UHGV virus genome: UHGV-1367038
DNA from: a virus
Strand: one strand, 5' to 3'
Length of the DNA stretch: 52,981 nucleotides
How positions within the stretch are numbered: the stretch's first letter is position 1; each line of letters begins with the position of its first letter. The position numbers and the translations under genes were made by a program. This document shows, piece by piece, positions 1 through 52,981 of the stretch. The notes below the pieces were generated by a model that ran no database searches, was not told the origin of the DNA, and saw only the letters and a list, made by a program, of their open reading frames with translations.

Positions 1-2265
1 ACGCTTACTACCGATACGTCATATGAATTCTACTATGCAGGGGAAAATCAGATCACAGATCCGGCAAAAATAACCACGTCGGCACAGTTTACCGGGCGCG
101 GGTATCAGTGGACGTTCGGCGGCATGAATACGGGCCATACTTATTACGTTTATGTGCGCACTCGTAATGCTTTTGGTGTGTCTGATTTCGTCGAGGCATC
201 AGGTAAGCCAACAGAGGATTTTGACGAAATCACTGATTACGTTACAAAGGATGTAATGGAATCAGAGCAATTCAAGGAGATGATTAGCGACATTAAAGAT
301 CTTGGTGATCGCACTGATATTGTAGAAGGAGCTACCGAAGACCTTAAAATAGCTACAGAGGATCTTAAAGCTGACACAGATACACTTAAAAAAGACACCG
401 AAGACCTTTATAAAAAAGTCGAAGAAAACGCCGATGAAATAGGCAAACATGAGGTAAGAATAGACTCATTAGAGGTATCAAACGAAAACGTTAACAACGA
501 ACTGGCACAGGCAAAAGCAAGTTTACAAAACGCTTCGCTTGCTCTGATCAATAACTCGCTTGCTCAAACTAACACGCGGGTTACTCTTACCGCTCAATAT
601 AAGAAAGGTCGCAACGAAACAAAGGCACAGATTGACCGCATCGACAACGTTATCGCAGAGGAGAAAAAAGCGACAGCGGAATCACTGGAAACCATCACAG
701 CCGAAATAAATACGATAGACTCAAACATCAAAGGAGAAATAGCCCGCGTAGACAAAGCAATAGCAACCGAAACGCAGGCGAGAACGGAAGCTATAAGCAA
801 CGTTAACGCCAGTATCAGCAGCCTGGAAAACAAAACTGATGCGAGCGTTTCTCGTCTCGATCAAGCTATCGCTGACGAATCAAGCGCCCGCGCTCAGGCA
901 ATATCAGGAATCAGTGCGGAGCTTGGTCTTGTTGAAAATGAGGTTGATAAAAACAGCGACGAAATAGATCAGGCGAAAGCAAGCCTGCAAAATGCCTCAC
1001 TTGCACTTATTAATAACTCAATAGCGCAAAGCAAAATGAGCACTGTTATTGAGGCAAAATACAGGAAAGGCCAGACAAAAACAAAAGCGGAAATAGCAAG
1101 AATCGACACCGCAATAGCAGACGAAACCCAGGCCCGCGCGGAGGCTATAGCATCGCTTGAGGCAAATATTAATGAAAACATTTCAGCAAAAATAACGGAT
1201 GTCTCAACGGCACTCGCAACTCACGAGGCATCAAGCGCTGAAAAATTTGTCCAGATCTCGGCGTCTTTCGAAGATGTAAATTCAAGCATCACGGAATGGT
1301 CGCGGGCTATGGCAACGGCAGACGAGGCTTTATCAACCAAAATTGACCAGTTAAAAGTAACTATTGACGGGAACACAACAGCCATAGAGACGACATCGAA
1401 AGCGTTAACGGACTTTAAGGGGAATGTTGACGCATCATACTCTATTAAGATCGCGACAGACAGCAGGGGCGTAAAATACGCTACTGGTATGTCACTTGGC
1501 CTTACTGGTAGCGGAACTAACGTGCAATCGCAGTGTATTTTCCTCGTTGATCGCTTCGTGTTAATGACTGCGGCAAACGGTTCATATCAGACCCCGTTCT
1601 ATGTTACTAACGGCGCTTGCTACATTCGTGAAGCGTGGATCAAAGACGCATCCATCACTACCGCGAAGATCGCGCAGCAAATCCAGTCAACCAACTATAC
1701 ATCTGGTTCGGCTGGCTGGATGCTAAACAAAAACGGTAACGCGGAGTTCAATAACGTCACTGTTCGGGGTACGGTATACGCCACAAACGGTAAATTTACT
1801 GGTGAGATTCAGGCCACAAGCGGGACGTTTAAAGGGACTGTACAGGCTAACAAATTTGTCGGTGATATTGTGGCTATTCACACTTTCCCTGATTCCAGCA
1901 CTGTCTATAACTCAAGCCAGCGTGTAGCGCGTTTCTGTTATCGCTATGTGGACTCAACATCCGAAGGGACTTATAAAAACGTTATGTTCCAGGCAAGGTT
2001 ATCAGGGGCTACTGGCAACTCACAGATCAATACCTGGATAGCTGGTTCTCAGGTATTGGTTGGTAAGAAATACGGTAACGAAAACTCGAACGGCATGTTC
2101 TGTTTCGGTAGGGATGGTGTAACAAATCAGACGGTCGATGTTATTATCGAGATCTACACTCCGTGGTCAACAGGTAACATCACCGGGATTACGTTAAGTT
2201 GTCCGACTATGTTTATCGGTCGCAGTAACGGCACATGGTCGAAATGGGAAGAATCACACGACTAA
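1..2265 (+). CDS. J: Host specificity / central tail fiber protein J, C-terminal part (5' partial; continues from window end)
   Basis: Open frame from base 1; FN3-like segment (HTYYVYVRTRNAFGVSDFVEASG) resembles lambda J; long coiled-coil with internal duplication; C-terminal receptor-binding-like domain. Confidence 0.8.
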   Translation, partial: TLTTDTSYEFYYAGENQITDPAKITTSAQFTGRGYQWTFGGMNTGHTYYVYVRTRNAFGVSDFVEASGKPTEDFDEITDYVTKDVMESEQFKEMISDIKDLGDRTDIVEGATEDLKIATEDLKADTDTLKKDTEDLYKKVEENADEIGKHEVRIDSLEVSNENVNNELAQAKASLQNASLALINNSLAQTNTRVTLTAQYKKGRNETKAQIDRIDNVIAEEKKATAESLETITAEINTIDSNIKGEIARVDKAIATETQARTEAISNVNASISSLENKTDASVSRLDQAIADESSARAQAISGISAELGLVENEVDKNSDEIDQAKASLQNASLALINNSIAQSKMSTVIEAKYRKGQTKTKAEIARIDTAIADETQARAEAIASLEANINENISAKITDVSTALATHEASSAEKFVQISASFEDVNSSITEWSRAMATADEALSTKIDQLKVTIDGNTTAIETTSKALTDFKGNVDASYSIKIATDSRGVKYATGMSLGLTGSGTNVQSQCIFLVDRFVLMTAANGSYQTPFYVTNGACYIREAWIKDASITTAKIAQQIQSTNYTSGSAGWMLNKNGNAEFNNVTVRGTVYATNGKFTGEIQATSGTFKGTVQANKFVGDIVAIHTFPDSSTVYNSSQRVARFCYRYVDSTSEGTYKNVMFQARLSGATGNSQINTWIAGSQVLVGKKYGNENSNGMFCFGRDGVTNQTVDVIIEIYTPWSTGNITGITLSCPTMFIGRSNGTWSKWEESHD

Positions 2266-2269
2266 TACT

Positions 2270-2291
2270 AACCCCGCTACGGCGGGGTTTA
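2270..2291 (+). terminator. Rho-independent terminator-like hairpin after J
   Basis: CCCCGC-tacg-GCGGGG followed by TTTAT. Confidence 0.5.
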
Positions 2292-2373: not shown

Positions 2374-4149
2374 ATGATTTACACAACAGGCACGATAGCC
2401 GTTAGCGGAAAAACAGTTACCGGAACGGGGACTGAATTCAACGCCGCATTATCTCTGATCAGAGTGGGTTGCACTCTTATTGCCATTAGTAATCCGGTGC
2501 AGATTTTCTCAATCACAGAGGTAAAAAGCGCGACAAGTTTGTCAGTAACTCCGGCAGCAAGCCCGGCAATTCCGGCTGGAACTAAATTTAGCATCCTGCT
2601 TTCAGATTCGATCTCTGTGGATGGTCTTGCTCAGGATGTTGCAGAAACACTGCGTTACTATCAGGGCAAGGAATCAGAAATAGCTGACGCCGTTGAATTT
2701 TTTAGCGACAACAAAGATGTGATTTCAGCCTCAAAATTAGCATCAGAATCAGCTACCACTGCAACCAATGCGGCAACAACAGCGACAACCGCCGCCAATT
2801 CAGCAAAGACATACAGAGACGAGGCCCACGAATACGCCAATCAGACGGCGCAGCCTTACGCGTATGTTTTGCAGCCGCTGCCGGACGTATGGATACCGTT
2901 TAATGATTCACTTGATATGCTCACTGGCTACGGCCCTGGCACTAAAAAAGTAACCATTGATGGTGAAGAAAAAACAATATCATCAGATAAGGTTGTTTCT
3001 TTCTCACGCGCAAGCACTGCGACCTATATCAATAAATCCGGTGTACTCACCACTGCTGATATTGATGAGCCGCGTTTCGAACGCGATGGATTATTAATCG
3101 AAGGCACACGCACAAATTACCTTACCAATTCTAATACGCCGACGTCGTGGAATGCTAACACAGGCGTCTTAGAATTAACTGAATCAGGGACGGATAGTTA
3201 CGGCTTTAATTATGGAACATTTACATGCACAGCAGATGCGGCATCAACAGCGACGTTAATTTCGACAGGCACATCAAGAGTAATAGCTACCGCATCCGGC
3301 GAATCAGTTACTATTTCCGGGCGCTTTAAGGGTACTGGCGTCCGCGCACGGGCGCGTATCTCAAAACTTAATGAAGATGGATCAGGTAATACATTCATTG
3401 CTGACGCGCTTTTGGATCTTGATACAAAAGTTTTAACGTACGCCGCTAATTATCTATCTGCTTACTTCGTTGATGAAGGAAACGGATGGCTTTTCTTTTC
3501 CACCACGTATACAGCAACCGAAGATATTGACGTCTACGCACGCTTTGAATTATCACCAAAAACCGGGGAAACATTAGCAATAGGCGACAGTATCACCATG
3601 ACCACGCCGCAGTATGAGTCTGGTTCTTGCGCATCATCGTTTATTGTATCAGGTGACAATCCAACCACACGAGCAAGCGACCTGGTAAGCATACCGACTA
3701 AGAATAACTTATTTAAGCCACCATTCAGTTTTTTACTTGAATTACATAAGGAATGGACAACAGCGCCAAACGCAGCACCTAGAGTATTTGATATTGCAAA
3801 CGCAAGCACAGGACAATCTATTATAGCTGCCATTAACAGAGGTAGCAGTAAATTTTACGTTTCCTTGTCTAACAGTTCTGGTGATTACATCAATTCTGCC
3901 GCTGATTCCGTATTGCCAAGTAAAGCCATTGTTGGTGCGGTAGCTAAAGGTGATGATACTTTTCACGCGATCATGGATGGTGTGGCCGTTGCAGATGCAA
4001 CATGTTCTTACGGTGGAGTAACTCAAGGCAAAAACATCAGATTCGGCGGTCAGGTAGCAGACGGAGCGCGCCACTTGTTCGGACATATAAGAAATTTTCG
4101 TATCTGGCACAAAGCATTAACTGATTCTCAATTAAGCGAAATTGTTTAA
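2374..4149 (+). CDS. Side tail fiber protein with C-terminal lectin/LamG-like domain
   Basis: 591 aa; GGAG RBS; N-terminal MIYTTGTIAVSGKTVTGTGTEF typical of enterobacterial phage tail fibers; Ala/Thr-rich shaft; position after J. Confidence 0.6.
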   Translation: MIYTTGTIAVSGKTVTGTGTEFNAALSLIRVGCTLIAISNPVQIFSITEVKSATSLSVTPAASPAIPAGTKFSILLSDSISVDGLAQDVAETLRYYQGKESEIADAVEFFSDNKDVISASKLASESATTATNAATTATTAANSAKTYRDEAHEYANQTAQPYAYVLQPLPDVWIPFNDSLDMLTGYGPGTKKVTIDGEEKTISSDKVVSFSRASTATYINKSGVLTTADIDEPRFERDGLLIEGTRTNYLTNSNTPTSWNANTGVLELTESGTDSYGFNYGTFTCTADAASTATLISTGTSRVIATASGESVTISGRFKGTGVRARARISKLNEDGSGNTFIADALLDLDTKVLTYAANYLSAYFVDEGNGWLFFSTTYTATEDIDVYARFELSPKTGETLAIGDSITMTTPQYESGSCASSFIVSGDNPTTRASDLVSIPTKNNLFKPPFSFLLELHKEWTTAPNAAPRVFDIANASTGQSIIAAINRGSSKFYVSLSNSSGDYINSAADSVLPSKAIVGAVAKGDDTFHAIMDGVAVADATCSYGGVTQGKNIRFGGQVADGARHLFGHIRNFRIWHKALTDSQLSEIV

Positions 4150-4519: not shown

Positions 4520-4702
4520 TATCAAAAATCAAAAGCAAAAATAACGTAATACACTGTTTTATAAATGATTATTCGTTGCGCTAACCATTCCAGACAGGAC
4601 CAGCGCACTATGTTTAAAGGTGTTTAACTCCGTTCAATCTCTCCACTAAAATTACTTAAAAATCATCCGGTTGTAACCAAAATCAAGCGTCACGTTTCTA
4701 AT

Positions 4703-4774: not shown

Positions 4775-5989
4775 ATGCTTACGGATACCAGGTTAAGGAC
4801 TATTGCCAACAAGCCATATGACGGCCCAGGCGAGATAGCTGATCGTGATGGCCTGTCAGCCAGGATAAGCCCAAAAGGGAAAATTACCTTTCAGTACCGT
4901 TACAGATTCAACGGTAAGCCAGTGCGAATGAAGATCGGCGAGTACGGGAAAATGAGTCTGAAAGACGCCCGCTACGCGGTGGCTGAATACAGGGAGTTGC
5001 TTACGAAAGGGAAGAATCCGGCACTGTGCGTAAAGCAGGCCATAGCCTTTGAGCAGGGCAAGCGATCTATATCCGACGTAGTGGAAGACTACCTATCCCT
5101 GCCGAACGTCATTAAGCTGGTGGCGTATAAAGAAGTAAAAAGCGCATTGATGCGCCACGTGGTCAACAAGTACGGCGACTACATAGCTGACGACGTAACG
5201 ACAAAACAGTGGATGGATATATTTGGCGAGATCACGAAGGCGGGGCACGCCGTTACGGCGGGTTTGATATTAAAGCGAATGAAAATCATCGTTAACAGCG
5301 CAATCAGGCGCGGGATAATGACTAACACAGCGATAAACAATATCCGTGTCGCTGACGTTGGCGAGCATTATGCGGTGGGTGAACGTTATTTATCATGCGA
5401 GGAGATAGGTCACTTCTGGCGCACTGTAGACAGTTCGCAGATCTATCCGCAGAACAAAATAGCCTTAAAGCTATTATTGCTAACAGGGTGTAGGGTTGGT
5501 GAATTGCAGAAAATGAGAAGGGAACACCTCGACCTGGATAACGGTGTGTGGACCGTTCCGGCGGCGGTGGCGAAGACAAGAAGTGAAATCAGGCGGGGAT
5601 TATCTGACTTGTCGATAAAAATGCTCAGGGAGGTTTTAACCTCCCATGAGTATGATTATGTATTCCCGCCAGTGATTAACGGCGGCAACAGGCCAGTAAA
5701 CGTATCAGTGATAAAAGTAGCTGCAATATTCGTGCGTAAAAGGATGGGCGGTAAATCATGGTCCTGTCACGACCTCCGCAGGACGTGCCGGACACACCTT
5801 TCAGCTATAGGTGTTCCGGTACATATTGCAGAAAAGATCTTAGGCCATTCATTAAGGGGAATACTGGCGGTGTACGACAAATATGATTATCTTGATGAAC
5901 AAAAGGAGGCACTAAATAAGTTTGCTGATTATGTGTTATCTTTGGCTGACGTTAAACCAATCCGATCAAAGAACTGCATTACGTCCTGA
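4775..5989 (+). CDS. int: Tyrosine integrase (P4-like, N-terminal arm-binding domain)
   Basis: 404 aa; N-terminal DUF4102-like arm-binding pattern; C-terminal HDLRRT...HSLRG...Y catalytic motifs; GGGGG RBS. Confidence 0.9.
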   Translation: MLTDTRLRTIANKPYDGPGEIADRDGLSARISPKGKITFQYRYRFNGKPVRMKIGEYGKMSLKDARYAVAEYRELLTKGKNPALCVKQAIAFEQGKRSISDVVEDYLSLPNVIKLVAYKEVKSALMRHVVNKYGDYIADDVTTKQWMDIFGEITKAGHAVTAGLILKRMKIIVNSAIRRGIMTNTAINNIRVADVGEHYAVGERYLSCEEIGHFWRTVDSSQIYPQNKIALKLLLLTGCRVGELQKMRREHLDLDNGVWTVPAAVAKTRSEIRRGLSDLSIKMLREVLTSHEYDYVFPPVINGGNRPVNVSVIKVAAIFVRKRMGGKSWSCHDLRRTCRTHLSAIGVPVHIAEKILGHSLRGILAVYDKYDYLDEQKEALNKFADYVLSLADVKPIRSKNCITS

Positions 5990-6159
5990 TAGCGGTACAT
6001 AACGCCACGCCCGGTCCCAAGTACGTCAACCGGGTCGGGGAACGGAGTTCCGTTCCGTTCCCATTTTTTACGCCATAAGTAAAACGTTCCCCTGCTAATT
6101 CCCCCAAGCATCCGGCAGATGGCAGGGCGACTAAGAAGGATTGTCCCGGTTTTATCCAT
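5929..6159 (-). CDS. AlpA-family HTH regulator / putative excisionase
   Basis: 76 aa; AlpA-like HTH (LLSRPAICRMLGGISRGTFYLWRKK); 3' end overlaps int 3' end by 61 nt. Confidence 0.65.
   Translation of the reverse strand: MDKTGTILLSRPAICRMLGGISRGTFYLWRKKWERNGTPFPDPVDVLGTGRGVMYRYQDVMQFFDRIGLTSAKDNT
6038..6070 (+). terminator. Terminator-like hairpin downstream of int, embedded in the AlpA-like coding region
   Basis: GGAACGG-agtt-CCGTTCC followed by ATTTTTTA. Confidence 0.4.
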
Positions 6160-8471: not shown

Positions 8472-9893
8472 TTAAAAAGATGCTTTATTCTGGTTGTTTC
8501 GTGGCGAGAATCGGCTTACCGCCGGACGTTGTTGCATTGACTGGATGCAAGCTGACGCCGCGCGGGCCTGGTCACACGGTAATATGTTGCCGTTGTCGTC
8601 AAAACGCTGGTAAACAGTCCCGGTTTTTCCGTGACGGTTTTTTGAAACGATAATCTCCATGTATTCGCGTGCAACAGATTGTTCGTTGTAGTAGCCGTCG
8701 CGGTATACCATGATGATCCGGTCTGCGTCCTGTTCAAGATTGCCGGAATCGCGCAGATCAGAATTGTTCGGTCGCTTGTTCGGTCGTTCCTCGACGCGGC
8801 GGGATAATTGCGCCAGCGCCGCCACTGGTACGCGCAATTCTTTCGCCATCATTTTCAACGACCATGATAATTGCCCTACAGCGAGATCATGACGTTCGGC
8901 CTTAGCCAGCTTCATTAACCCGATGTAGTCAATCATTACCATACCCAGGTTAGGGTGATCCTGTTTCATTCGTTCGGCGGTGGCGCGTATTTCCTCGACC
9001 GTTAACTGTGATGCGTCAACAATCCATACTTCAAGATCAGCAAGTGCGCTCATACCCTGGGCTACGTGCGCCCATCCTTCATCATCAAGTTTTACCGGGT
9101 TACGCAGGCAATCAGTTGATAAGTTCCCAGCGCCAGCTATAGCGCGTTCGGTCATTTGATCAAGCGACATTTCAAGCGTAAAGAGCAAAACACCGACCCG
9201 CTGGCCTTCGCCGCCAGGGTAGGGGCGTTCAGCCGCCGAGCGGGCTATTGCTAACGCTAACGCTGATTTGCCAGACCCAGGACGTCCGGCGATAAGCACA
9301 AGATCAGTGGCGTTAATGCCGCCTAACATTTCGTCGAGTGGTTCTATCCCTGTTTTTATGTTGTCAGAATTGACACCGCATTCCATGCGCTTACTTAAAA
9401 CTTCCGTGTACTCCTGTACTGCGTCGCGCAACAGTACCGGAAGGATCTTGTCTTTCGTTACCTTTAATTTTGAATACCGGGAATCAAAATCCTTCATCGT
9501 CTCCTTGACAACCTCAAGCGTCCCCGTTTCCAGCTTGTAGCGAACGTCTTCCATTAGCTCCAGCATTTGCCGCCGCTGGTGTTCTTCCTGTAGTAGCTGC
9601 GCGTACCCTTTCAGGTTGGCAGCAGAAGGACACGATCGCGCCGTTTGCATTAGCGGTATGAAATTTTCGTTACCGATTTCATCACCAACCAATAACGCGT
9701 CGATAAGATTTCTGTTTCTGGCTTGCGCCCTGATGATTTCGAACGCGCGCCTGTACAGAGGAATAGTGAATACATCAGGATCGAGTGTAGCAAGAACATC
9801 TTGCGCGTTAGGAGTAAGCCCGCCTAACAGGAGGCCACCTATAACAGCCGCTTCGCGCTCCTGCCGCAATGAGTTCACTTGCTCAGTTATCAT
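8472..9893 (-). CDS. dnaB: Replicative DNA helicase (DnaB family)
   Basis: 473 aa; Walker A GRPGSGKSALALAIA; DnaB-like N- and C-terminal domains. Confidence 0.9.
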   Translation of the reverse strand: MITEQVNSLRQEREAAVIGGLLLGGLTPNAQDVLATLDPDVFTIPLYRRAFEIIRAQARNRNLIDALLVGDEIGNENFIPLMQTARSCPSAANLKGYAQLLQEEHQRRQMLELMEDVRYKLETGTLEVVKETMKDFDSRYSKLKVTKDKILPVLLRDAVQEYTEVLSKRMECGVNSDNIKTGIEPLDEMLGGINATDLVLIAGRPGSGKSALALAIARSAAERPYPGGEGQRVGVLLFTLEMSLDQMTERAIAGAGNLSTDCLRNPVKLDDEGWAHVAQGMSALADLEVWIVDASQLTVEEIRATAERMKQDHPNLGMVMIDYIGLMKLAKAERHDLAVGQLSWSLKMMAKELRVPVAALAQLSRRVEERPNKRPNNSDLRDSGNLEQDADRIIMVYRDGYYNEQSVAREYMEIIVSKNRHGKTGTVYQRFDDNGNILPCDQARAASACIQSMQQRPAVSRFSPRNNQNKASF

Positions 9894-30132: not shown

Positions 30133-30133
30133 A

Positions 30134-43059: not shown

Positions 43060-43082
43060 ATCCGGGCGTTCTCTTTTATTTG
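43045..43082. terminator. Bidirectional terminator between the plus-strand chaperone gene and minus-strand moron cassette 1
   Basis: CCCGG-tagat-CCGGG flanked by A-run upstream and T-run downstream. Confidence 0.55.
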
Positions 43083-43378: not shown

Positions 43379-43389
43379 GATGCGCCTCC

Positions 43390-43497: not shown

Positions 43498-43498
43498 G

Positions 43499-43849
43499 TT
43501 ACGCCCCCGCCTCAATTCTGTTATGAATTGCGAATCCTTTAACTTCGCCGTCATGAATCACTTTTAATTGTTCAGGATCTTTTAATCCTTCAACTATTTC
43601 TTTGTATTTTTCGTGTAGTCTATATTCTTCAACAATTTTTTTATCAAGAAATGGCACTACTGCTTTATATTCACATGCTGCGTTATATACGATCTCAACA
43701 TAACCCATGCTGTCACCATACTTGATGTCGTACAATTCAGCGGCAACCGCGCATTCATGTTTTGCTTTATCAACTTTGTTTTCTGCGTTAGCACCAAATG
43801 CAAATGCTGCAATCATCGCCGCCATCACTGCTTTTGCTAACCGTTTCAT
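43499..43849 (-). CDS. Moron 1b: secreted/periplasmic protein
   Basis: GAGGTGG RBS; Sec signal peptide MKRLAKAVMAAMIAAFAFGANA. Confidence 0.6.
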   Translation of the reverse strand: MKRLAKAVMAAMIAAFAFGANAENKVDKAKHECAVAAELYDIKYGDSMGYVEIVYNAACEYKAVVPFLDKKIVEEYRLHEKYKEIVEGLKDPEQLKVIHDGEVKGFAIHNRIEAGA

Positions 43850-43861
43850 AAACCACCTCGC

Positions 43862-43951
43862 TTAATTTTTGTTTTTAAGTGCTTTTAACATTTCTTCGAT
43901 GAAATCAGCATAGCGTTCATATTCGTTGGGGCGGTAGTTTACGTTTTTCAT
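43862..43951 (-). CDS. Moron 1a: small hydrophilic peptide (29 aa)
   Basis: AGAGGA RBS; MKNVNYRPNEYERYADFIEEMLKALKNKN. Confidence 0.35.
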   Translation of the reverse strand: MKNVNYRPNEYERYADFIEEMLKALKNKN

Positions 43952-44123
43952 TTTCTTATCCTCTTTTGCTTCCTCCGGTTTATCCGGCCTTTTAAAATCC
44001 TTTTCCTGCTTCCTTAGTTTTAGGGGATTTCGCCTCCCTCGTTCCTTCGGTTAGCTGGGCTTCAAGTCTCAATCCTTTATATCCTTCGACCTTCTTTTCC
44101 CTCTCTCATCCTTCACCTTCTTT

Positions 44124-44166
44124 ATACAAAATGGAGTCGTTGAAGTGAAGCCATTTTGTATAAAAT
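44124..44166 (+). promoter_or_regulatory. Conserved inverted-repeat element TACAAAATGG-N16-CCATTTTGTA followed by TATAAAAT
   Basis: Near-identical to 47170..47217; lies between moron cassette 1 and tape measure gene. Confidence 0.5.
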
Positions 44167-44201
44167 AGAGACGTAGATCACATTTTGTATGAGGTTAAAT
44201 C

Positions 44202-46544
44202 ATGGCTACCAGTTTAGGTACAATTTATTACGAAGTTGACGCCAAAACGGGGCAACTTCTTGTCGTGCAGCGGCAAGCAGATCAAACGTTTGACACCATC
44301 GAGCGCGGCGCAAAACGTGCCGATCGCCAGGTGAATACACTTAAAACGTCAATCAAAACACTGACCAGGGCAATCCACCTGCTACTTGCTGCCGAGGCTG
44401 TGCGCCAGTTTATTGATATGGCGGAACAGGCAAAACAGTTACGCGTAAAAATCAAAATGCTGACAGGTGATGCCGAGTCTGCCGGACGGGTTTTCGATGG
44501 TCTGAAAGCAATATCCAGGGAGACAGGTCAGAGCCTGAAAGATACTGGCGAATTATGGCAAGGACTGGCTATCTCACTCAAGAACACCTCCGCCACGGAA
44601 GGGCAACTGCTTAACCTGGTTGGCACTATTCAGAAAATGGGTGCGCTAGGAGGTGCGTCAGCGGAACAAATGTCTAACTCAATGCGCCAGTTCCGCCAGG
44701 CTATCGACGGCGGCGTATTGCGTGCTGAAGAATTCAACAGCCTACTTGAAAACACTCCCACCATCGTACAGACAATGGCCCGCCAGATGGGGTTATCAAT
44801 GGGCCAGTTCCGCGCTGAAATGCTGGACGGCAAGATCACGGCTGAAAGGATGGTCAACGCAATCCAGGCGGCTACGCAGGAAACAAACGATAAGTTTGCT
44901 CAGTTGCCGCGCACATCCGGCATGGCTATCAACGAACTAAAAGTCGAAGTGATGGGCCTGGTTGAGCAACTGGACGATCTTTTCGGTGTATCAGATGGCG
45001 TGGTATCAGCTATCGACTTAATCACGAAGGTCGTTAAAGGGTTAGGTGAGGGCGCTAAATTCGCTAAAACCTGCTTCGACACACTCAAAACGGCTGGTAG
45101 CGAATTTATCGACATGTTTGATGATGTTGCTGTTAAAGCTGGTGAGGTGGCGGAGAAGATCATCGCAATGGTGACGCCAATCAAGGCGCTAATGGATGCA
45201 TATAAATGGATGAAGGAGGTAGTAGGAGAGCAAACCGACGAATATAACAGCAACTACGAGAAGAAATACGGGAAGACCGTTGGCAAGGTCATGCAACTAC
45301 AGGATGATCTGACAGCAGCAATCCAGGCTACAGAAGAAGCAAGGAAAAATGAACAGAATGCTGCCAATGACGGAGCGATTACCGGATTCGACAAGCCAGT
45401 TGATAAGCCGAAAAAGCAGAAAAAAGAGAAGAAATCGGAAGCCGATCGTCTTGGTGACAGGGGTATAAGCGTTTCTGACCAGTACAATAAAGACGCAGCA
45501 GCTATGCGCAAAGCGTTAGAGAACGGCAAGGCTATTGATGCTGCATTCGCTCAGGGGAAAATAACACTCCTTGAGTACCGCGCAGCGCAAAAGGGGATCG
45601 GCAAGGAACTGAAGGAAGAATTAGCGCAGATCCCTGCAGATGAATTACGTGATAAATGGGCGCAAATAGTAAGCCCGATGGATCAGCTTAAAGGCGAGGT
45701 TGACCCTATTCAGCAGGCGCAAAATGAATGGGCCGTCCGTAAGCAAATGTTGTTAGATCTGAACGCATCAGAGGCGCAAATCAGGGCCGAGCAACTCCAG
45801 CATGAAAGGACCATCACCAGCCTTAAATGGGAACAATGGCAGGCGCAAAGCGATACAAACGGCCTGATCGGTGATTGCGTTAACGGCCTTAAAGGCGGTA
45901 TGAGCAATGCGCTCGTCGGCCTGCTTAACGGTACTCAATCATTGAGCGATGTTTTTGCTAACTTAGGGAGCAATATACTAGGGAACATCGGTAGCAGACT
46001 TTCTGACATAGCCGCCGACTGGATAGCAGATCAAATCATGATGGAGACGCAAAGCAAGGCCACGCAAGCCAGTACAACGGCAAGCGCGGTAGCCGCTCAG
46101 GGAAGCATAGCGGCGGCGGCGGCCCCGGCGGCGGCAGCGACAGCGGCATCAACTGGCGGTAGCTGGGCGGCGGCTGGTTCTGCGGCGCTAACTGCAATCA
46201 TGTCGCTGGCAACATCCATTTTCGGCGGCAGGCGCTTTAATGGTGGTAGTGTCATTGGCGGCAATTTGTACCGTGTCGGGGAAAATAACAGAATGGAGCT
46301 ATTCCAGACGCCTAACGGCAACCAATATATGATCCCTGGCGAGAATGGCAGAATCATCCCTGGCCGTGACATTGGCGGCGGTGGCGGTATTAGTATGCCT
46401 GTCAGTATCAGCATTCAGACCACAAACGGATTTAGCGAAGAAGACAGCCGCAGACTTGAATCAACAATGGAACGTGTAGCCATGAAAATGATAACAAGGG
46501 AGTCGCAAAGACCAGGCGGTATATTGCAGCCGCGCCGCAAATAA
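44202..46544 (+). CDS. Tail tape measure protein
   Basis: 780 aa; tape-measure N-terminal domain; coiled-coil middle; Gly/Ala-rich C-terminus. Confidence 0.85.
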   Translation: MATSLGTIYYEVDAKTGQLLVVQRQADQTFDTIERGAKRADRQVNTLKTSIKTLTRAIHLLLAAEAVRQFIDMAEQAKQLRVKIKMLTGDAESAGRVFDGLKAISRETGQSLKDTGELWQGLAISLKNTSATEGQLLNLVGTIQKMGALGGASAEQMSNSMRQFRQAIDGGVLRAEEFNSLLENTPTIVQTMARQMGLSMGQFRAEMLDGKITAERMVNAIQAATQETNDKFAQLPRTSGMAINELKVEVMGLVEQLDDLFGVSDGVVSAIDLITKVVKGLGEGAKFAKTCFDTLKTAGSEFIDMFDDVAVKAGEVAEKIIAMVTPIKALMDAYKWMKEVVGEQTDEYNSNYEKKYGKTVGKVMQLQDDLTAAIQATEEARKNEQNAANDGAITGFDKPVDKPKKQKKEKKSEADRLGDRGISVSDQYNKDAAAMRKALENGKAIDAAFAQGKITLLEYRAAQKGIGKELKEELAQIPADELRDKWAQIVSPMDQLKGEVDPIQQAQNEWAVRKQMLLDLNASEAQIRAEQLQHERTITSLKWEQWQAQSDTNGLIGDCVNGLKGGMSNALVGLLNGTQSLSDVFANLGSNILGNIGSRLSDIAADWIADQIMMETQSKATQASTTASAVAAQGSIAAAAAPAAAATAASTGGSWAAAGSAALTAIMSLATSIFGGRRFNGGSVIGGNLYRVGENNRMELFQTPNGNQYMIPGENGRIIPGRDIGGGGGISMPVSISIQTTNGFSEEDSRRLESTMERVAMKMITRESQRPGGILQPRRK

Positions 46545-46548
46545 ACAA

Positions 46549-46580
46549 AACCCCGGTACAATGCCGGGGTTATCTTTTAT
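46549..46580. terminator. Bidirectional terminator after tape measure gene
   Basis: CCCCGG-tacaatg-CCGGGG then TTATCTTTTAT. Confidence 0.7.
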
Positions 46581-46753
46581 TCATTATCAAAACTTGTATA
46601 TCCTCTCTCAATTTTCCCGCCTCTTACGCTTTTGGCGAATACTGCGTCAGTGTATTTGAAAAACGGTTCTGTGTATGTATCGCCTTTCGTGTCCATCCAT
46701 TTTACGATCCAGGCCATGCGTTTGACGTTGCTTTTATTTGCAGTGACTTTCAT
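46577..46753 (-). CDS. Moron 2c: small protein (58 aa)
   Basis: GGAGG RBS; MKVTANKSNVKRMAWIVKWMDTKGDTYTEPFFKY. Confidence 0.45.
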   Translation of the reverse strand: MKVTANKSNVKRMAWIVKWMDTKGDTYTEPFFKYTDAVFAKSVRGGKIERGYTSFDNE

Positions 46754-46771
46754 TTTATTTTCCTCCGCAAA

Positions 46772-46864
46772 TTACAATCTTCCGTTTCTTGCTATGTAGC
46801 TGCGAGCAAACATCACTTGCCAGATGTTCCATATTTCACGCCAGGTGAATTTATCGTCATTCAT
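46772..46864 (-). CDS. Moron 2b: small protein (30 aa)
   Basis: GAGGTAGG RBS; MNDDKFTWREIWNIWQVMFARSYIARNGRL. Confidence 0.35.
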   Translation of the reverse strand: MNDDKFTWREIWNIWQVMFARSYIARNGRL

Positions 46865-46871
46865 ACCTACC

Positions 46872-47126
46872 TCACTTATGCGCACCTTTGACGCCGCAGT
46901 GCCTGTTATATTCAAGATGATCGATGATTAACCATACCTTGAGGTCTTCACTGAACAGCCGCCAATCAGGGTTGATGTCAAATTTGAAACCGTATCCGTC
47001 GCGTAACTTTTTGGGGTACGCTTCTTTCTTCAGAAACGCTTTGAGCAATTCCTTACCTTTCTTGATGATCCGGTCCTGTGCGTTTTTCTGTGCTTTCAGG
47101 TTTTTGTCAATCGCTACCAGTTTCAT
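46872..47126 (-). CDS. Moron 2a: basic hypothetical protein (84 aa)
   Basis: ORF with start at 47126. Confidence 0.5.
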   Translation of the reverse strand: MKLVAIDKNLKAQKNAQDRIIKKGKELLKAFLKKEAYPKKLRDGYGFKFDINPDWRLFSEDLKVWLIIDHLEYNRHCGVKGAHK

Positions 47127-47169
47127 AACATCCCCCTTTGCGTAACGTCTTTCTCATTTGCTTTCTGTA

Positions 47170-47217
47170 TACAATATGGAGTTCATAAAGTGAAGCCATT
47201 TTGAAAACTGGTTATAA
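47170..47217 (+). promoter_or_regulatory. Conserved inverted-repeat element TACAATATGG-N16-CCATTTTG followed by TATAAT
   Basis: Homolog of 44124..44166; near-CRP site TGTGA-N6-TCTCA at 47222..47237. Confidence 0.5.
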
Positions 47218-47293
47218 TTCCTGTGATGAATGTCTCATTTTTCGCGTAGAATCGCGTAAAGATATATACAAAATGTAACTTATAGGGGGTTTT

Positions 47294-47647
47294 ATGCCTG
47301 AAGTGTTCCGATGGACACCACAAAGAAGCTACAGCGTAAACAGTGAGCCTAACGTGTCTGTCATTAAACTGGGTGATGGGTATGAACAGAGGCAGACAAA
47401 AGGGATTAACCCTTTACTTGATAGCTATACGCTGGTCTTTAAGGGTACGAGCGCAGGATGCGGTGACGCCGGAAACGTAGCGCTACAGGTTGACGCATTT
47501 TTAAGAGCACGTTGCGCGGTCGAGGCGTTTTACTGGACTCCATCAACGGATGGAGTTCAAAGGCTTTTTGTATGCCGAAAGTGGAGCATGACGAAAGACG
47601 GCCCGGTATGCACGCTGAATGCAACGTTTGAACAAGTTGTCAATTAA
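47294..47647 (+). CDS. M: Minor tail protein M-like
   Basis: 117 aa; DGYEQR motif and C-terminal ATFEQVVN resemble lambda M. Confidence 0.8.
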   Translation: MPEVFRWTPQRSYSVNSEPNVSVIKLGDGYEQRQTKGINPLLDSYTLVFKGTSAGCGDAGNVALQVDAFLRARCAVEAFYWTPSTDGVQRLFVCRKWSMTKDGPVCTLNATFEQVVN

Positions 47648-47660
47648 TGGAGGTGTCAAT

Positions 47661-47846
47661 ATGTATGCTATTTGTGTAGTTGACCGCACTGGCGCTTTTA
47701 CATTGTTTGACGACTACGAGATCAACGACCTTACTGTAAAAGCTGATAATGGTGAGACCTGGTATCTTCATGACGTTGGTGACGGGTATGTTGGGTGCAG
47801 GTCGAGAGAAGGCAAGGAAGTTTTATTCTTACTTGATGGCGTATAA
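47661..47846 (+). CDS. Hypothetical protein
   Basis: GGAGG RBS; 61 aa. Confidence 0.45.
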   Translation: MYAICVVDRTGAFTLFDDYEINDLTVKADNGETWYLHDVGDGYVGCRSREGKEVLFLLDGV

Positions 47847-47852
47847 ACACGA

Positions 47853-47876
47853 CCCCGCGCGAAGCGGGGTTTTACA
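47853..47876 (+). terminator. Rho-independent terminator
   Basis: CCCCGC-gcgaa-GCGGGG then TTTTAC. Confidence 0.65.
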
Positions 47877-47947
47877 TTGTTGATAGCAGAATAAACAATA
47901 ATCCTATTATTATAATAATCACTTCTAATATGTAGTGATAACACATA

Positions 47948-48196
47948 TCATAATGTTTCCCTTAAGTATGTTAACCCCTTATCAGTGACGAATGAATGAT
48001 TAACCTGGTTTTCATCCGTCATGATGATGAATAACTTTTCCTGTAGGTATTTCGCTTTAGGGTACAGCGTTAAGCAGACCTTGTACAGTATCCCGCGCTC
48101 AATCAGCAAATCAATAAATTCGTGCTCATGATAACCGATGAGGCGGGCGGCCTGTTTCAACGTGTACACATAATCGCCGTGATTGCGCCGCCCCAT
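47948..48196 (-). CDS. Moron 3c: small protein with possible HTH
   Basis: AAGGCGG RBS; YTLKQAARLIGYHEHEFIDLLIERGILY. Confidence 0.5.
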   Translation of the reverse strand: MGRRNHGDYVYTLKQAARLIGYHEHEFIDLLIERGILYKVCLTLYPKAKYLQEKLFIIMTDENQVNHSFVTDKGLTYLRETL

Positions 48197-48205
48197 GTTG
48201 CCGCC

Positions 48206-48568
48206 TTATTTATCGAATGCGCTCAGGTTATCTATGCAGAAGTCTTTCGCGGCTTTTTCGTATTCGAGTTTTGCTTTCGGGTCGTCTGCCGGGAAACCTT
48301 TTGCGTGTATTTCGCCAGGGCAAGCCTGATCCATAGAGTTAGCAAAATTAACATTGAGGTTCACATTAATATCTTTCGGGTTCATAGCATTGTCCTCGTC
48401 TTGTTCGTCGTCTGGTATTTCTATCGGGTTAACTGTAAAGTCACATGCCCTGTTCCAGCACCGGAGTATTTCAATACCTTCGACTCGCGCCTTTTCATAC
48501 GTTTCGAATATCCCAAGATATTCCCATTCTTGCCTGTCAGTCCATACATCTAAACGCCATTTTCTCAT
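48206..48568 (-). CDS. Moron 3b: hypothetical acidic protein
   Basis: Start at 48568 or 48580; overlaps 3a by at least 32 nt. Confidence 0.45.
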   Translation of the reverse strand: MRKWRLDVWTDRQEWEYLGIFETYEKARVEGIEILRCWNRACDFTVNPIEIPDDEQDEDNAMNPKDINVNLNVNFANSMDQACPGEIHAKGFPADDPKAKLEYEKAAKDFCIDNLSAFDK

Positions 48569-48755
48569 TTCGCCCACCATTGAATTTAATAGGTTTAATC
48601 CGGTAGCCCATTACTCGATCATCTTTTTCTGATAGGTCTAAGGCCGTATCTAATGCGTCTCCAGGATTATCGAATTCAGCATCGACATCACGCCCATTAC
48701 TCATAAATAAGGTTAGTATCCATAACTTGTCATTCATTCCGCGCCATTGTTCCAT
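48537..48755 (-). CDS. Moron 3a: hypothetical protein
   Basis: AAGGAGG RBS before ATG 48755; MEQWRGMNDKLWILTLF. Confidence 0.5.
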   Translation of the reverse strand: MEQWRGMNDKLWILTLFMSNGRDVDAEFDNPGDALDTALDLSEKDDRVMGYRIKPIKFNGGRNEKMAFRCMD

Positions 48756-48831
48756 TTTGTTGACCTCCTTCCGTTTGAGTAAAATATACATATTGTAAAA
48801 ACCGAGATCAATCCATTTTGGTATGATTTAG

Positions 48832-48847
48832 CGTGACACAGATCACA
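48832..48847 (+). promoter_or_regulatory. CRP-like palindrome cGTGA-N6-TCACA about 20 bp upstream of L
   Basis: CGTGACACAGATCACA; preceded by ATCCATTTTGGTATGA block. Confidence 0.4.
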
Positions 48848-48865
48848 AAATGACAAGGTGAGAAA

Positions 48866-49570
48866 ATGCGCAGTATACCTACAGAGATGATTATTGATTC
48901 CGTCGACGCCGGAGTTGGCGCGGTCATTGACTTATTCGAACTGGATTTATCGCCCATGGGTGGCGATGTTATCCGATTCCATTCCGGCGCAAACGGCTAT
49001 TACGGTCCGGTTATCTGGAAGGGCGTAGCTTACAACAGCTACCCGATCGAGGCTACTGGCTTCGAAATGAAAAACGAAGGCGTTTATTCGCGTCCTCAAA
49101 TGGTTGTAGCCAACATCGGCGGGCTAATTACGGGGATGAATAACGATTTCAACGACCTAAGAGGAATGAAGGTGACGCGCCGCCAGGTGGAGGTTAAATA
49201 TCTGGACGCTGTTAACTTCCCTAACGGCAATCCAGATGCAGATCCATCCATTGAGGCTGTGTCGTTTTATGTCGTCGAATCAATGAGCGAAGAAACTGCG
49301 GACCAGGTGCAATACGAACTGTCAACGCCAATTGATGCTGACAAAGCCGTTATTCCTGGTCGCACCATCCTTGCTGATGTTTGCCAGTGGCAGTACAGGG
49401 GCGACGGGTGCATGTATTCTGGCGGCCCTGTAGCAACGGATAAAGATGTACCGACAAGCGATCCAACGTTAGACAAATGCAGCCACAGATTGAGTGGTTG
49501 CCGTTTGCGTTTCCCGCGTCCGGCAGCACTGCCAATCTCCTGTTTCCCTGGTTCCAGCAAGGTAGGTTAA
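48866..49570 (+). CDS. L: Minor tail protein L-like
   Basis: 234 aa; resembles lambda L (FLDAVNF.NGN..ADP ... WQYRGDGC.YSG ... DKCS..LSGC). Confidence 0.85.
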   Translation: MRSIPTEMIIDSVDAGVGAVIDLFELDLSPMGGDVIRFHSGANGYYGPVIWKGVAYNSYPIEATGFEMKNEGVYSRPQMVVANIGGLITGMNNDFNDLRGMKVTRRQVEVKYLDAVNFPNGNPDADPSIEAVSFYVVESMSEETADQVQYELSTPIDADKAVIPGRTILADVCQWQYRGDGCMYSGGPVATDKDVPTSDPTLDKCSHRLSGCRLRFPRPAALPISCFPGSSKVG

Positions 49571-49572
49571 TC

Positions 49573-50304
49573 ATGGTTATGGAAGGCAAAATGTCGCGTT
49601 ATGCCGCCGCGCATCCGTTTGAGGAAGTATGCGGTCTTGTAATAGATAACGAGTATTTTTACCCGTGCGCTAACGTGTCTGAAACGCCTCACAACAGCTT
49701 TAAAATTTCGCCAGACGATTACATCAAAGCGGACGAATTGGGTGTTATAACCGCCGTTTTCCACTCCCACGTTGATGATATTCCGGTATTGTCTGCGCGG
49801 GATAGACAACAGCAGGTTATTTCCGGTCTGCCGTGGTTTTTATACTCCGGCGGCAAGATCAGAAAATTCCGTCCGGTGGCGCACCTGTTAGGCCGTAAAT
49901 TTGTACACGGAACGACAGATTGTTATGCGCTTCTCCGCGACGCCTATCACCTTTGCGGCGTGGACCTGCCGGACTTCGAGCGCTTTGATGGATGGTGGCT
50001 TCGTGGCGAAAACCTGTATTTAAAAAACTTGCCATTGAACGGGTTTCATCAGGTTGATGCGCAAAGCATACAGCAAGGTGACGTAATCATCAGGCAACCG
50101 TTTAAAGGTGCTGATCCGTGTCACGCGATGATTTACCTGGGTGATAACACGGTTTTGCATCATGACCATGCCGGACTGTTAAGTCGCCGCGAGCAAATGC
50201 GGCCCGCGTATGTTCGACAGACTCATTCAATATGGAGATCTGATAAATGCTCAAATTTAGATTTACGGGCAATCTTCGAAGATATTACAGCAAAGTGTGT
50301 TTAA
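49573..50304 (+). CDS. K: Tail tip assembly protein K-like (MPN/JAB plus NlpC/P60 domains)
   Basis: JAMM-like HSHVDDIPVLSARD; NlpC/P60 Cys (DCYALL) and His (HAMIYLGDNTVLHH). Confidence 0.8.
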   Translation: MVMEGKMSRYAAAHPFEEVCGLVIDNEYFYPCANVSETPHNSFKISPDDYIKADELGVITAVFHSHVDDIPVLSARDRQQQVISGLPWFLYSGGKIRKFRPVAHLLGRKFVHGTTDCYALLRDAYHLCGVDLPDFERFDGWWLRGENLYLKNLPLNGFHQVDAQSIQQGDVIIRQPFKGADPCHAMIYLGDNTVLHHDHAGLLSRREQMRPAYVRQTHSIWRSDKCSNLDLRAIFEDITAKCV

Positions 50305-50777
50305 ACGTTGAAACGCCAGCGCAAGGACTTCGCTTATTGACAGCGCAGAATCAGGAATTCAAGAAGGCGTTTTTAAATACACCTTTGCGTTTACGGATTG
50401 CCGGGAAAGATTACGACGAAAAGACCGCGCCAGCGGCTGTTAACAGCAAATATCCAGATGGAACTACGGTAATCATCGCGCCAATAGTGGAAGGTGGTAT
50501 TGCAGGGATTGGCGTGGTCGGCTGGATTATGATCGGAATATCAGTTGTTAGTGTCGCATTTTCTATTTTCATGTCTCGCAACATGAAGGTGAAAACATCA
50601 TCAGAAAGTGCACAGGACAATACAATCACAAATAACACCTATACCAGCGTAGAAAACAAGGTAGGCCAGGGTAGACCAGTGCCGATTCTCCTTGGCGAAA
50701 TGAAAGTAGGTTCAAACGTCGGATCGTTAGGCATAGACACAACCAACAATAAAGACGCCTTAGACGTTGTAAGTTAA
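50247..50777 (+). CDS. I: Tail assembly protein I-like
   Basis: N-terminal ubiquitin-like region; hydrophobic Gly-rich segment; QGRPVPILLGEMKVGSNV resembles lambda I. Confidence 0.7.
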   Translation: MLKFRFTGNLRRYYSKVCLNVETPAQGLRLLTAQNQEFKKAFLNTPLRLRIAGKDYDEKTAPAAVNSKYPDGTTVIIAPIVEGGIAGIGVVGWIMIGISVVSVAFSIFMSRNMKVKTSSESAQDNTITNNTYTSVENKVGQGRPVPILLGEMKVGSNVGSLGIDTTNNKDALDVVS

Positions 50778-50791
50778 CAGGAGAAATAACC

Positions 50792-52981
50792 ATGAGTAGC
50801 GGCGGCGGCAAAGCAAAAACACCGACTTTGATTAATGATAACCTTTATCACAAACAGTTTTATCGTGTGCTGGATATTATTTCGGAAGGTCCGATTTATG
50901 GCCCTGTCAATACCAGTGCGCCATTAAATAGCGTAATGCTTAATGACACTCCTGTAACTGACGCTAACGGTAATACCAGTATCCCTGGTGTTAGCGTTGC
51001 GTGGCGTAATGGTACGTTAGATCAATCACCTATTAACGGCTTTAATGCCATCGAATCAACGGTAATGGTTAACGCGCAGGTGAAACACGACACGCCACTT
51101 GTAAGGACGGTATCAGATCCGAACGTGACGCGAGTCCGGTTAAATATTGGCGTGGATTCTCTGGTGGAAAGCGATAGCCAATCAAACCAGAAAGAAACAT
51201 CTGTCATTATGGCGATCGACGTTAAACCGTCCTCATCTTCCACATGGTCGTCTATTAAGGCCGTGCAAATAGGCCCAGGTAAAATCAGCGGAGAATACCT
51301 TGAAGCGCATATTATTGATGCGCCAGATGAAAAGCCGTTTGATATTCGCGTTCGCCGCGTAACCGCTGATAGCACAAGTGATCTATTGCAGAATGATACG
51401 CGGTGGAGTAGCTACAGCGAAATAATCGACGATAATTTGTCTTATCCTCACACTGCTGTAGCAGGCGCGGTTATTGATCACGATCAGTACACTGACACAC
51501 CTACTCGCACTTATCACCTGCGTGGGCTTATTGTTGACGTGCCTGATAACTACGACCCGGAAACGCGCACTTATTCCGGTTTATGGCTTGGTGGTTTGAA
51601 ACGGGCTTACACTAATAACCCTGCGTGGATCTTCCGCTACCTGGTAAAAAATGAGCGTTTCGGCCTTGCCCGTCATGCTGGTTATATCGACGTTGACGAC
51701 GGCGCATTATATACACTCTCCCAATACTGCGACCAGTTGGTCGATGATGGTTACGGTGGCCTTGAGCCGCGCGTGACGCTTAATGCGTACATAACAGAGC
51801 AAATGAGCGCACGCGATTTGCTGGACAACATCGCCGGGATGTTCCGTGGCATCGCGTTATGGGACGGGCAACGCCTTACCGTAATGATTGATGCACCGCA
51901 AGATCCAATCGCCACCATTACTAATGCAAACGTTGTTGATGGCGCGTTTACTCGTTCAAGTATCTCCCGTGCGGAATGCTACAACGCCGTGATCGTATCC
52001 TGGACTGACCCGGAAAACGGTTGGGAACAATCAAAAGAGTATGTAGCAGATGATGAGCTAATAGCCCGCGATGGCTACAACGAAACCACGATGGAGGCGT
52101 TCGGGTGCACGTCACGCGGGCAAGCGTACCGTGCTGGCAAATGGCTGATAGAAACAGCAAAACGCGAGCCGTCAAAATTCACGTTTAAAATGGCACGTGA
52201 CGCAATTCACTTTACGCCAGGGGATATAATCGAGATCCTCGACAATAACCGCGCAGGCGCTCGTTTAGGCGGTCGTATTGTGGCGAACAATGGGAACGTA
52301 ATAACAGTTGATAAGGTTGACAGTGAGTATATCACGGCGGGTGATACTATCAGCCTTCTCGATAGCGATGGCAAATTTAAAAAACATCAGATTACTGGTG
52401 TAAACGGAAACGAAATCACACTAGCGGCGGCCCCGGCATGGATTCGGAACGGTACTGTATTTGCTGTATCCACCGAAGCGGCAAAACCCGTTTTATGCCG
52501 GATCACCAGTGTAGCCGAAACCGAAAATAATAGCGTGTATACCATCGAAGCAGCGCAACATGACCCGAACAAACAAGCGGTAGTCGATGAAGGCGCGATA
52601 TTTGAAATCAACAACGACACGCTTAATCACTTCCGTGTCCCGAACATTGAAAACCTGAAAGTGGTAAACATCGGATCTGAAACAGTTCAATGCCGAGCTA
52701 CATGGGAAACACAGACAACCACGCATCGCATGACATTCGAGATCCGCATATACAATACTGATGGTGCGGTGGTTAAAAGCTACGAAACAACGAAATACAG
52801 TTATGATTTTTATGGTATTGACGCTGGCGCGTATTCGTTAGGCGTTCGCGGAAGAAACGATACTGGCATGAAAGGCGCTGAAAGCATTGTTGATCTTGTT
52901 ATTGGTGCTCCAGCCGCGCCAGTTGGCGTAAATTGGGTTCCAGGCGTATTTCAGGCGACCGTGTACCCGATAAGCAAAACC
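50792..52981 (+). CDS. J: Host specificity protein J, N-terminal 730 codons (3' partial; continues at base 1)
   Basis: AGGAG RBS; similarity to lambda J along the whole segment (ISEGPIYGPV..., WSSYSEIID, MEAFGCTSRGQAYRAGKWLIET); no stop before window end. Confidence 0.9.
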   Translation, partial: MSSGGGKAKTPTLINDNLYHKQFYRVLDIISEGPIYGPVNTSAPLNSVMLNDTPVTDANGNTSIPGVSVAWRNGTLDQSPINGFNAIESTVMVNAQVKHDTPLVRTVSDPNVTRVRLNIGVDSLVESDSQSNQKETSVIMAIDVKPSSSSTWSSIKAVQIGPGKISGEYLEAHIIDAPDEKPFDIRVRRVTADSTSDLLQNDTRWSSYSEIIDDNLSYPHTAVAGAVIDHDQYTDTPTRTYHLRGLIVDVPDNYDPETRTYSGLWLGGLKRAYTNNPAWIFRYLVKNERFGLARHAGYIDVDDGALYTLSQYCDQLVDDGYGGLEPRVTLNAYITEQMSARDLLDNIAGMFRGIALWDGQRLTVMIDAPQDPIATITNANVVDGAFTRSSISRAECYNAVIVSWTDPENGWEQSKEYVADDELIARDGYNETTMEAFGCTSRGQAYRAGKWLIETAKREPSKFTFKMARDAIHFTPGDIIEILDNNRAGARLGGRIVANNGNVITVDKVDSEYITAGDTISLLDSDGKFKKHQITGVNGNEITLAAAPAWIRNGTVFAVSTEAAKPVLCRITSVAETENNSVYTIEAAQHDPNKQAVVDEGAIFEINNDTLNHFRVPNIENLKVVNIGSETVQCRATWETQTTTHRMTFEIRIYNTDGAVVKSYETTKYSYDFYGIDAGAYSLGVRGRNDTGMKGAESIVDLVIGAPAAPVGVNWVPGVFQATVYPISKT

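Follow-up and report, generated by a model that had tools for sequence, protein, structure and literature searches.

A J-like gene split across the ends of a human-gut virus sequence points to a closed 52,981-bp genome of the mEpimmI phage group

The UHGV virus genome UHGV-1367038 is available as a single stretch of 52,981 nucleotides (nt), here called the window, which both begins and ends inside an open reading frame (ORF). This raises the question whether the two truncated ORFs are the broken edges of a longer DNA, or the two halves of one gene on a circle. The results presented below indicate that the window is almost certainly the full, non-redundant 52,981-bp genome of a temperate Escherichia coli siphovirus, which closed as a circle in assemblies from human-gut metagenomes and was written out from an arbitrary point in a gene resembling gene J of phage lambda. 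The truncated ORFs at both edges are therefore an artefact of the linearisation of a circular contig, which is an ordinary by-product. The phage falls in the mEpimmI group (mEp021-like), described by Negrete-Mendez et al. 2025 (PMC11893012) with mEp021 (MH706966) as its archetype. This group comprises Nus-dependent, non-lambdoid temperate siphoviruses that are common in the human gut and carry four types of integrase, type I of which is directed to ydaM (also named dgcM) (PMC11893012).

The ORF that starts at position 50792 on the plus strand reaches the last base of the window after 2190 nt, or 730 codons, without encountering a stop, as an earlier interpretation based on the letters alone (the sequence-only reading) had stated. 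That reading also placed base 1 in frame with the ORF closing at 2265, and the frame is open from the first base up to that stop (754 codons plus stop). When the end of the window was joined to its start, the single uninterrupted ORF that had been anticipated was obtained, encoding 1484 amino acids (aa) plus a stop, that is 1485 codons. The two parts do correspond to consecutive regions of lambda J (NP_040600). Thus, the N-terminal part (50792..52981) aligned to lambda J residues 1-733 with 40% identity (E 6e-174), and the C-terminal part (1..2265, plus strand) resumed at residue 744, with matches to residues 744-877 and 832-1020. The joined protein gave one high-scoring segment pair (HSP), in which residues 1-854 aligned to lambda J residues 1-861.

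Analysis of the joined protein revealed five Pfam domains, all scoring above their gathering cutoffs, in the order FNIII-A_GpJ (aa 88-214), Phage-tail_3 (aa 335-492), Ig_J (aa 609-707), Ig_J_second (aa 709-811) and Phage_Tail_Tip (aa 1191-1328). This is the domain order of lambda J itself and, together with the genes for L, NlpC/P60 K and I that lie directly upstream, it assigns the protein to the lambda J family. The junction, at aa 730/731, lies within Ig_J_second, and this domain is full length (profile positions 2-104 of 105) only when the two parts are joined; the C-terminal part contributes its remainder, followed by a coiled coil, Phage_Tail_Tip and a divergent receptor-binding end.

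If the join is genuine, relatives should read through it. A 455-nt probe spanning the join gave unbroken alignments, at 80-86% identity, to the J genes of seven isolated phages (MagusPhagus, mEp554, mEp013, mEp010, mEp044, mEp021 and mEp515). The integrated prophage of E. coli M15 was continuous through the same point (position 4167|4168 of the prophage locus) at 94-95% identity, and an IMG/VR contig that is continuous across the join at 93% identity contained the exact 42-nt junction internally. Much closer copies were found in metagenome assemblies. Over 21,776 nt that include the join, JGI contig Ga0495776_012607 agreed with the joined window at every base (100% identity) and ENA ERZ28572965 scaffold_535 at all bases but one (99.995%), which is an agreement far beyond chance. 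In three metagenome contigs the segments 50792..52981 and 1..2265 were contiguous, and the identical 1484-aa J protein was encoded by identical DNA in all three long loci compared.

Exact-protein look-ups identified at least eight contigs with a length of either 53,036 or 53,100 nt. These lengths equal 52,981 plus 55 and 52,981 plus 119, respectively, and both collapse to exactly 52,981 bp. Direct inspection confirmed this for one contig of each class: the first 55 nt of scaffold_535 are its last 55 nt (window 24011-24065), and the first 119 nt of Ga0495776_012608 are its last 119 nt (window 50430-50548). We take these overlaps to be the k-mer remnants typical of circular de Bruijn contigs; one of the records is named k119_. 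The contigs were opened at different places, observed directly at window positions 24011, 50430 and 50499 and computed from offsets at 42803 and 27297, giving at least five permutations in total. No terminal direct repeat was found within the window itself, which indicates that its overlap had already been trimmed beforehand. Neither did the circle contain, on either strand, an exact repeat of 31 nt or more, and this excludes false closure via a repeat at k=55 or k=119. The length of 52,981 bp also fits the span of the relatives, 52,961-54,655 bp. Together, the separate assemblies that close the same circle, this length, and the intact attachment site and lack of host DNA described below bear out the proposal of the sequence-only reading that the window is a complete circular genome.

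The phage attachment site (attP) and the integrase gene lie, as had been proposed, between the tail fibre gene (2374..4149, plus strand) and the minus-strand replication genes, which include the gene for a DnaB-type helicase (8472..9893). The integrase is a tyrosine recombinase (4775..5989, plus strand) with Arm-DNA-bind_3 and Phage_integrase domains and 89% identity to that of mEp021. Its 3′ end overlaps a minus-strand gene (5929..6159) for a small helix-turn-helix protein with a weak match to HTH_23, which is Xis-like as inferred from its position. Related E. coli prophages are split exactly at a 12-bp core, TCCAGACAGGAC (4589..4600), inside dgcM/ydaM, and this core is common to attL and attR of the M15 prophage in dgcM. 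In E. coli genomes, similarity on the integrase side begins at window position 4589, adjoining dgcM, and similarity on the fibre side stops near 4600. In alignments with both ends of the M15 prophage, the left arm of the window paired with the phage sequence at attR and its right arm with the phage sequence at attL. As both arms of the core are thus phage-derived, the site is attP. No tRNA and no Rfam family was found in the window, and the absence of a tRNA gene indicates that the attachment site is not tRNA-linked.

The corresponding bacterial site (attB), reconstructed as host arm, core and host arm, was uninterrupted inside dgcM in 5367 of the 5426 complete E. coli genomes. The attB/dgcM host sequence matched 5389 of these genomes, against 35-36 for segments of the window, and the matches to window segments were always prophages and always chromosomal (72 places, none on plasmids). 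This restriction to a small set of prophage-bearing genomes indicates that the window contains no host DNA.

Since the small terminase subunit, TerS (32920..33420, plus strand), is Sf6 gp1-like, we predict that the phage uses pac/headful rather than cos packaging. TerS matches PF20901 (Sf6_terminase) with E 1e-36 and a score of 125.7 bits (cutoff 27), and it also matches the structures 3HEF and 4DYC of Sf6 gp1 in the PDB (E 1.4e-28 for 3HEF). The gene for the large subunit, TerL (33432..34919, plus strand), follows; it encodes a Terminase_6C nuclease domain, and its tblastn relatives include the terminases of T1-like coliphages and those of mycobacteriophage PG1 type. T1-like and PG1-type phages are headful packagers. 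A head protein of the Mu F/SPP1 gp7 type is encoded after the portal gene. The TerS family is common to the window and the Sf6/P22 headful system, whereas TerL shows no detectable sequence similarity to the solved TerL proteins of Sf6 or P22. Headful packaging that begins at a pac site inside or close to the TerS gene is thus likely, and this place agrees with the position of about 32900 at which the sequence-only reading expected the cos or pac termini.

How else might such a circle be explained? Two related phages could have been joined, or a linear contig closed, through a repeat in or near J. The J genes of the mEpimmI group are repeat-bearing and mosaic (PMC11893012 section 3.6), and several related phages co-occur in gut samples. 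Yet a chimera or false circularisation of this kind is very improbable, given that the circle is devoid of repeats of the size mentioned above, that it was recovered identically from k=55 and k=119 assemblies of different samples with different break points, that prophages and isolated phages are collinear with it over the join and over every other break point, and that one Pfam domain bridges the join. There is a negligible chance that the window represents a prophage in its integrated state, or a chromosomal fragment with mis-set ends. Although its closest relatives in complete genomes are all integrated in E. coli, the core is flanked by phage sequence on both sides, as in attP and not as in attL or attR; no segment of the window occurs in more than 36 of the 5426 E. 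coli genomes, versus 5389 for attB/dgcM; and the window ends inside J, not at an attachment site. An extrachromosomal plasmid-prophage in the style of P1 would likewise assemble as a circle from bulk metagenomes, and the window has a ParE-like toxin gene (46872..47126), but the intact integrase gene, attP and Xis-like gene, the integration of close relatives at the matching attB, the absence of partition or plasmid-replication genes among the gene calls, and the fact that 72 of the 72 matching places in E. coli are chromosomal and none is on a plasmid, make it scarcely credible.

A different possibility is that the circle is complete in the assembly but belongs to a cos packager, in which case it would reflect cos-annealed, ligated or replicating DNA inside the cell, with fixed cohesive ends located just upstream of TerS at about 32.9 kb. 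Tail genes J, L, K, I and others are lambda-like, and lambda is a cos phage; moreover, about 1 kb immediately 5′ of TerS is without conventional genes. However, TerS is neither lambda Nu1-like nor HK97-like, TerL matches Terminase_6C of T1-like/PG1-like phages and not Terminase_GpA or Terminase_1, the Mu F/SPP1 gp7-type head protein is present alongside, and the region upstream of TerS consists of conserved micro-ORFs (see below) instead of cos-like repeats. Cohesive ends are consequently unlikely.

Some observations weigh against the interpretation of the window as a closed genome that is packaged by a headful mechanism. Some of the contigs of JGI 3300045988 may be re-deposits of ENA assemblies, so that the circle was obtained in at least 3-5 truly independent assemblies rather than in 8. 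An exact scan for the 42-nt junction gave no match in genome-contig or metagenome-contig collections; an exact scan of the same collections with a 46-nt pattern taken shortly after the first base of the window gave none either, and in viral contigs the only match of these scans was the 93% relative. As for packaging, TerL has no sequence match to the solved terminases in the PDB, including those of Sf6 and P22, and the description of the mEpimmI group says nothing on cos, pac or termini (PMC11893012). Finally, headful virion DNA is circularly permuted and would assemble as a circle, so a circular assembly alone is no proof of an intracellular circular form: a circle inside the cell, or an excised one, gives the same result as linear virion DNA that is circularly permuted and terminally redundant. 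The sequence-only reading had called the window a vegetative or excised circle and not a prophage. The second part of that claim stands, both arms of attP being phage sequence, whereas the choice between an excised circle and permuted virion DNA is beyond what assembly can decide.

The assignment of this closed genome to the mEpimmI group follows from several comparisons with mEp021. The published rule admits a phage when its BLASTn alignment to mEp021 reaches 60% coverage or more and 70% identity or more (PMC11893012 section 2.2); the window gave 80.6% coverage and 83.0% mean identity. Along most of its length it is about 84-88% identical to mEp021-like phages. Its G+C content is 45.96%, where about 46%, together with a conserved synteny of ~50 core genes, is characteristic of the group. 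After rotation of the window to attP, every HSP kept its place in the order of mEp021 along the entire record of that phage (115..53357), starting at attP and reaching to the tail fibre, and the order of Pfam-annotated genes is that of the mEp021 annotation. Of the Nus-dependent, N-like antitermination and the siphovirus morphology of the group, the window shows the Q-like antiterminator gene and tail genes of siphovirus type. The order shared by the two genomes is attP, int, the minus-strand replication operon, CI, Erf/SSB, Dam, NinG/RusA/Q, lysis, packaging, head, tail, J and fibre. Besides the similarity of the integrases, the attP core is identical to the one in attL and attR of the dgcM prophages, and the dgcM/ydaM attachment site, which goes with integrase type I, is that of mEp021 as well. 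A gene for a CI-like repressor with HTH_3 and Peptidase_S24 domains (12822..13469, plus strand) encodes a protein 98% identical to the mEp021 repressor over 198 residues (12873..13466), which predicts immunity type I. The J gene is lambda-like, but the phage is not strictly lambdoid, its genome being that of the non-lambdoid mEpimmI group.

The closest relatives found are the prophages of strains KKa019, UMNK88 and M15 which, unlike the window, are integrated, with attL and attR in dgcM or at other sites. The KKa019 prophage (NZ_CP091664) is 91.4% identical over 96% of window positions 5000-29999 and 86.4% identical over 89% of the late half, and the UMNK88 prophage is 89% identical over 95% of the late half. 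No relative with more than 95% identity was found. As 95% is the usual species criterion for phages, the window represents a new species-level member of the group. Its predicted host is E. coli. With respect to the integrase subtypes, we noted a mismatch within the description of the group: section 3.4 gives the integrases of mEp021, mEp515 and mEp554 as Ia, and Table 2 as Ib (PMC11893012). The integrase region of the window shows 89-95% nucleotide identity to the prophages in the Ia column of that table (KKa019, PAR, MS21-1, M1/5 and FAH); for the prophages of the Ib column the value is 83-86%.

Compared with lambda J, the J protein of the window has an insert of ~360 aa (about aa 830-1190) that forms a coiled coil between Ig_J_second and Phage_Tail_Tip and is missing in lambda J. 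In the J proteins of both the window and mEp021, a repeat or coiled-coil region comes after an N-terminus of lambda type, but the two proteins differ in length (1484 against 1727 aa) and in their receptor-binding ends. The last ~200 aa of the window protein are ~50% identical to the fibre tips of rV5-like myoviruses (FV3, Murica and rV5); they are closer to these than to other mEpimmI J proteins, and do not resemble the LamB-binding domain of lambda. The J protein of the M15 prophage is 96.8% identical over aa 1-1326 and divergent thereafter, which indicates a swap of the receptor-binding module. Downstream of J, mEp021 and the M15 prophage have an exclusion lipoprotein or FlgL-like gene before the fibre gene, and the M15 prophage has cor and IS903B (prophage locus 7484-8452) in this interval; in the window, by contrast, both of the latter are absent and the fibre gene follows J directly. 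No homolog of the Lpp/Cor superinfection-exclusion lipoproteins known from characterised members of the group, or of the FlgL-like virion protein, was found in window 2265-4600, and the HNH genes of mEp021 are also missing from the window, as are its Lpp exclusion lipoprotein and FlgL-like virion protein genes. The 591-aa tail fibre protein has a ConA-like/Laminin_G_3 C-terminus and shares 59% identity with the fibre of the M15 prophage.

The 1,014-nt stretch between the gene for a 180-aa protein (31363..31905) and TerS is without genes in RefSeq and metagenome gene calls. It contains, however, 12 near-abutting plus-strand micro-ORFs of 22-32 codons (31908..32909), each of which would encode a polar start followed by one hydrophobic helix (for example MIDPLIILSACVAVWLAIMIFIES and MKELFDWLEVLTYCASFVACVYIINKY). 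Several of them overlap stop-to-start; this suggests that their translation is coupled within the late operon. Orthologous units are present in MagusPhagus, mEp010, mEp021 and UMNK88, and mEp021 has about 4 micro-ORFs versus the 12 of the window. All 47 of 47 IMG/VR relatives carry 2-12 micro-ORFs per locus, belonging to about 16 ortholog families that vary in presence and absence, and the ORFs are open throughout; seven more distant loci with an Sf6-like TerS have no such micro-ORFs. Changes in the best-conserved units are nearly all synonymous; two units, for instance, each show 8 synonymous changes and 0 non-synonymous ones. Over all families the codon variants comprise 295 synonymous against 243 amino-acid-changing ones. 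Random change would give a synonymous share of, by estimate, roughly a quarter, well under that observed.

The micropeptides had no significant match in PHROG, and no description of such micropeptide arrays was found in the literature. Type I toxin peptides are alike in size and hydrophobicity, but the micro-ORFs of the window are too tightly packed to leave room for antisense small-RNA genes. A plausible though tentative interpretation of this pattern of conservation is that the array represents an undescribed gene class, consisting of family-wide, copy-number-variable, translated single-helix micropeptides that would be expressed from the late operon and might act either in the initiation of packaging or at the membrane, with a role in lysis timing, exclusion or depolarisation.

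The gene content suggests the following life cycle. Linear virion DNA would enter the cell and circularise. Recombination by Int between the 12-bp core of attP (4589-4600) and its identical counterpart in the 5′ part of dgcM/ydaM would then produce a prophage, and the immunity-type-I CI-like repressor would keep the lysogenic state. Induction would lead to excision and to replication from an iteron origin in the initiator gene with the phage's own DnaB-type helicase. A TerS/TerL pair of the Sf6 kind would package the resulting concatemers by the headful mechanism, beginning at a pac site inside or close to the TerS gene, so that the virion DNA would be circularly permuted and terminally redundant. 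Assemblers would return a circle from such virion DNA and equally from the excised or replicating molecule.

In the minus-strand replication operon, the helicase gene encodes DnaB and DnaB_C domains, and the replication-initiator-like gene (11521..12561, minus strand; HTH_36) houses four tandem iterons of ~22 nt (12147-12236) with the pattern GGTGTC-NNNN-TGACAC-TACCC, each with internal dyad symmetry. The iteron region includes the longest exact repeat of the genome, 29 nt. By their appearance, which is that of a lambda-O-style origin, the iterons are probably the origin of replication. On the plus strand, a Q-like late antiterminator gene (23027..23755; PF03589 Antiterm) is followed, from 23755 to 29823, by about 25 consecutive small genes (43-115 aa, without Pfam match) that extend up to the holin gene. 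This block is about 5.9 kb in the window, compared with about 8 genes and 1.7 kb in mEp021. We considered that ~20 of these genes might form a tandem paralog array, and rejected this idea on finding weak similarity in 3-5 of them only (the 26594-27763 set, with a C-x-Y-S...G-x-x-Y motif). The lysis cassette, with genes for a holin, a lysozyme and an Rz-like protein, occupies 29932..31080 (plus strand).

The head genes (34977..39986, plus strand) encode the portal, the Mu F-like minor head protein, a 422-aa head protein, a decoration-like protein and the major capsid protein (DUF6260). The portal homolog in UMNK88 (locus 4875-6248, equivalent to window 34998-36371) carries the RefSeq/PGAP label 'anti-CBASS protein Acb1 family protein' and matches Pfam Phage_portal_3. 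The Acb1 label on such homologs is probably a misleading automatic name that has spread over many E. coli genomes; as it falls on a portal homolog, we discarded it as a sign of an anti-defence gene. The tail module (41451..50777, plus strand) comprises the terminator, tube, tape measure (44202..46544), M, L, K (NlpC/P60) and I genes, and is broken by three minus-strand clusters of small genes. These clusters lie before the tape measure gene (43076-43951), between the tape measure gene and M (46577-47126), and between M and L (47948-48755). Their cargo includes the gene for the ParE-like toxin (46872..47126) and, next to it, one for a 58-aa protein, as well as a gene for a KilAC/ANT-domain protein (47948..48196). 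As mEp021 and UMNK88 hold different cargo at the same spots, these positions are moron hot spots. A comparison with NCBIfam yielded no informative match, either for the moron genes or for the 180-aa gene upstream of the micro-ORFs.

In summary, the two truncated ORFs at the edges are one gene, and the window needs no flanks and can be read as a closed map of 52,981 bp. The circle, the attP site and the predictions made from them will be unsurprising to a phage specialist. They nevertheless add a species-level member to a recently defined coliphage group that is prevalent in the gut, with near-identical copies in several human gut samples, apparently in a free, non-integrated form. For this new member we predict E. 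coli as host, dgcM as integration site, immunity I, and headful packaging, a mode that had previously not been addressed for the mEpimmI phages.

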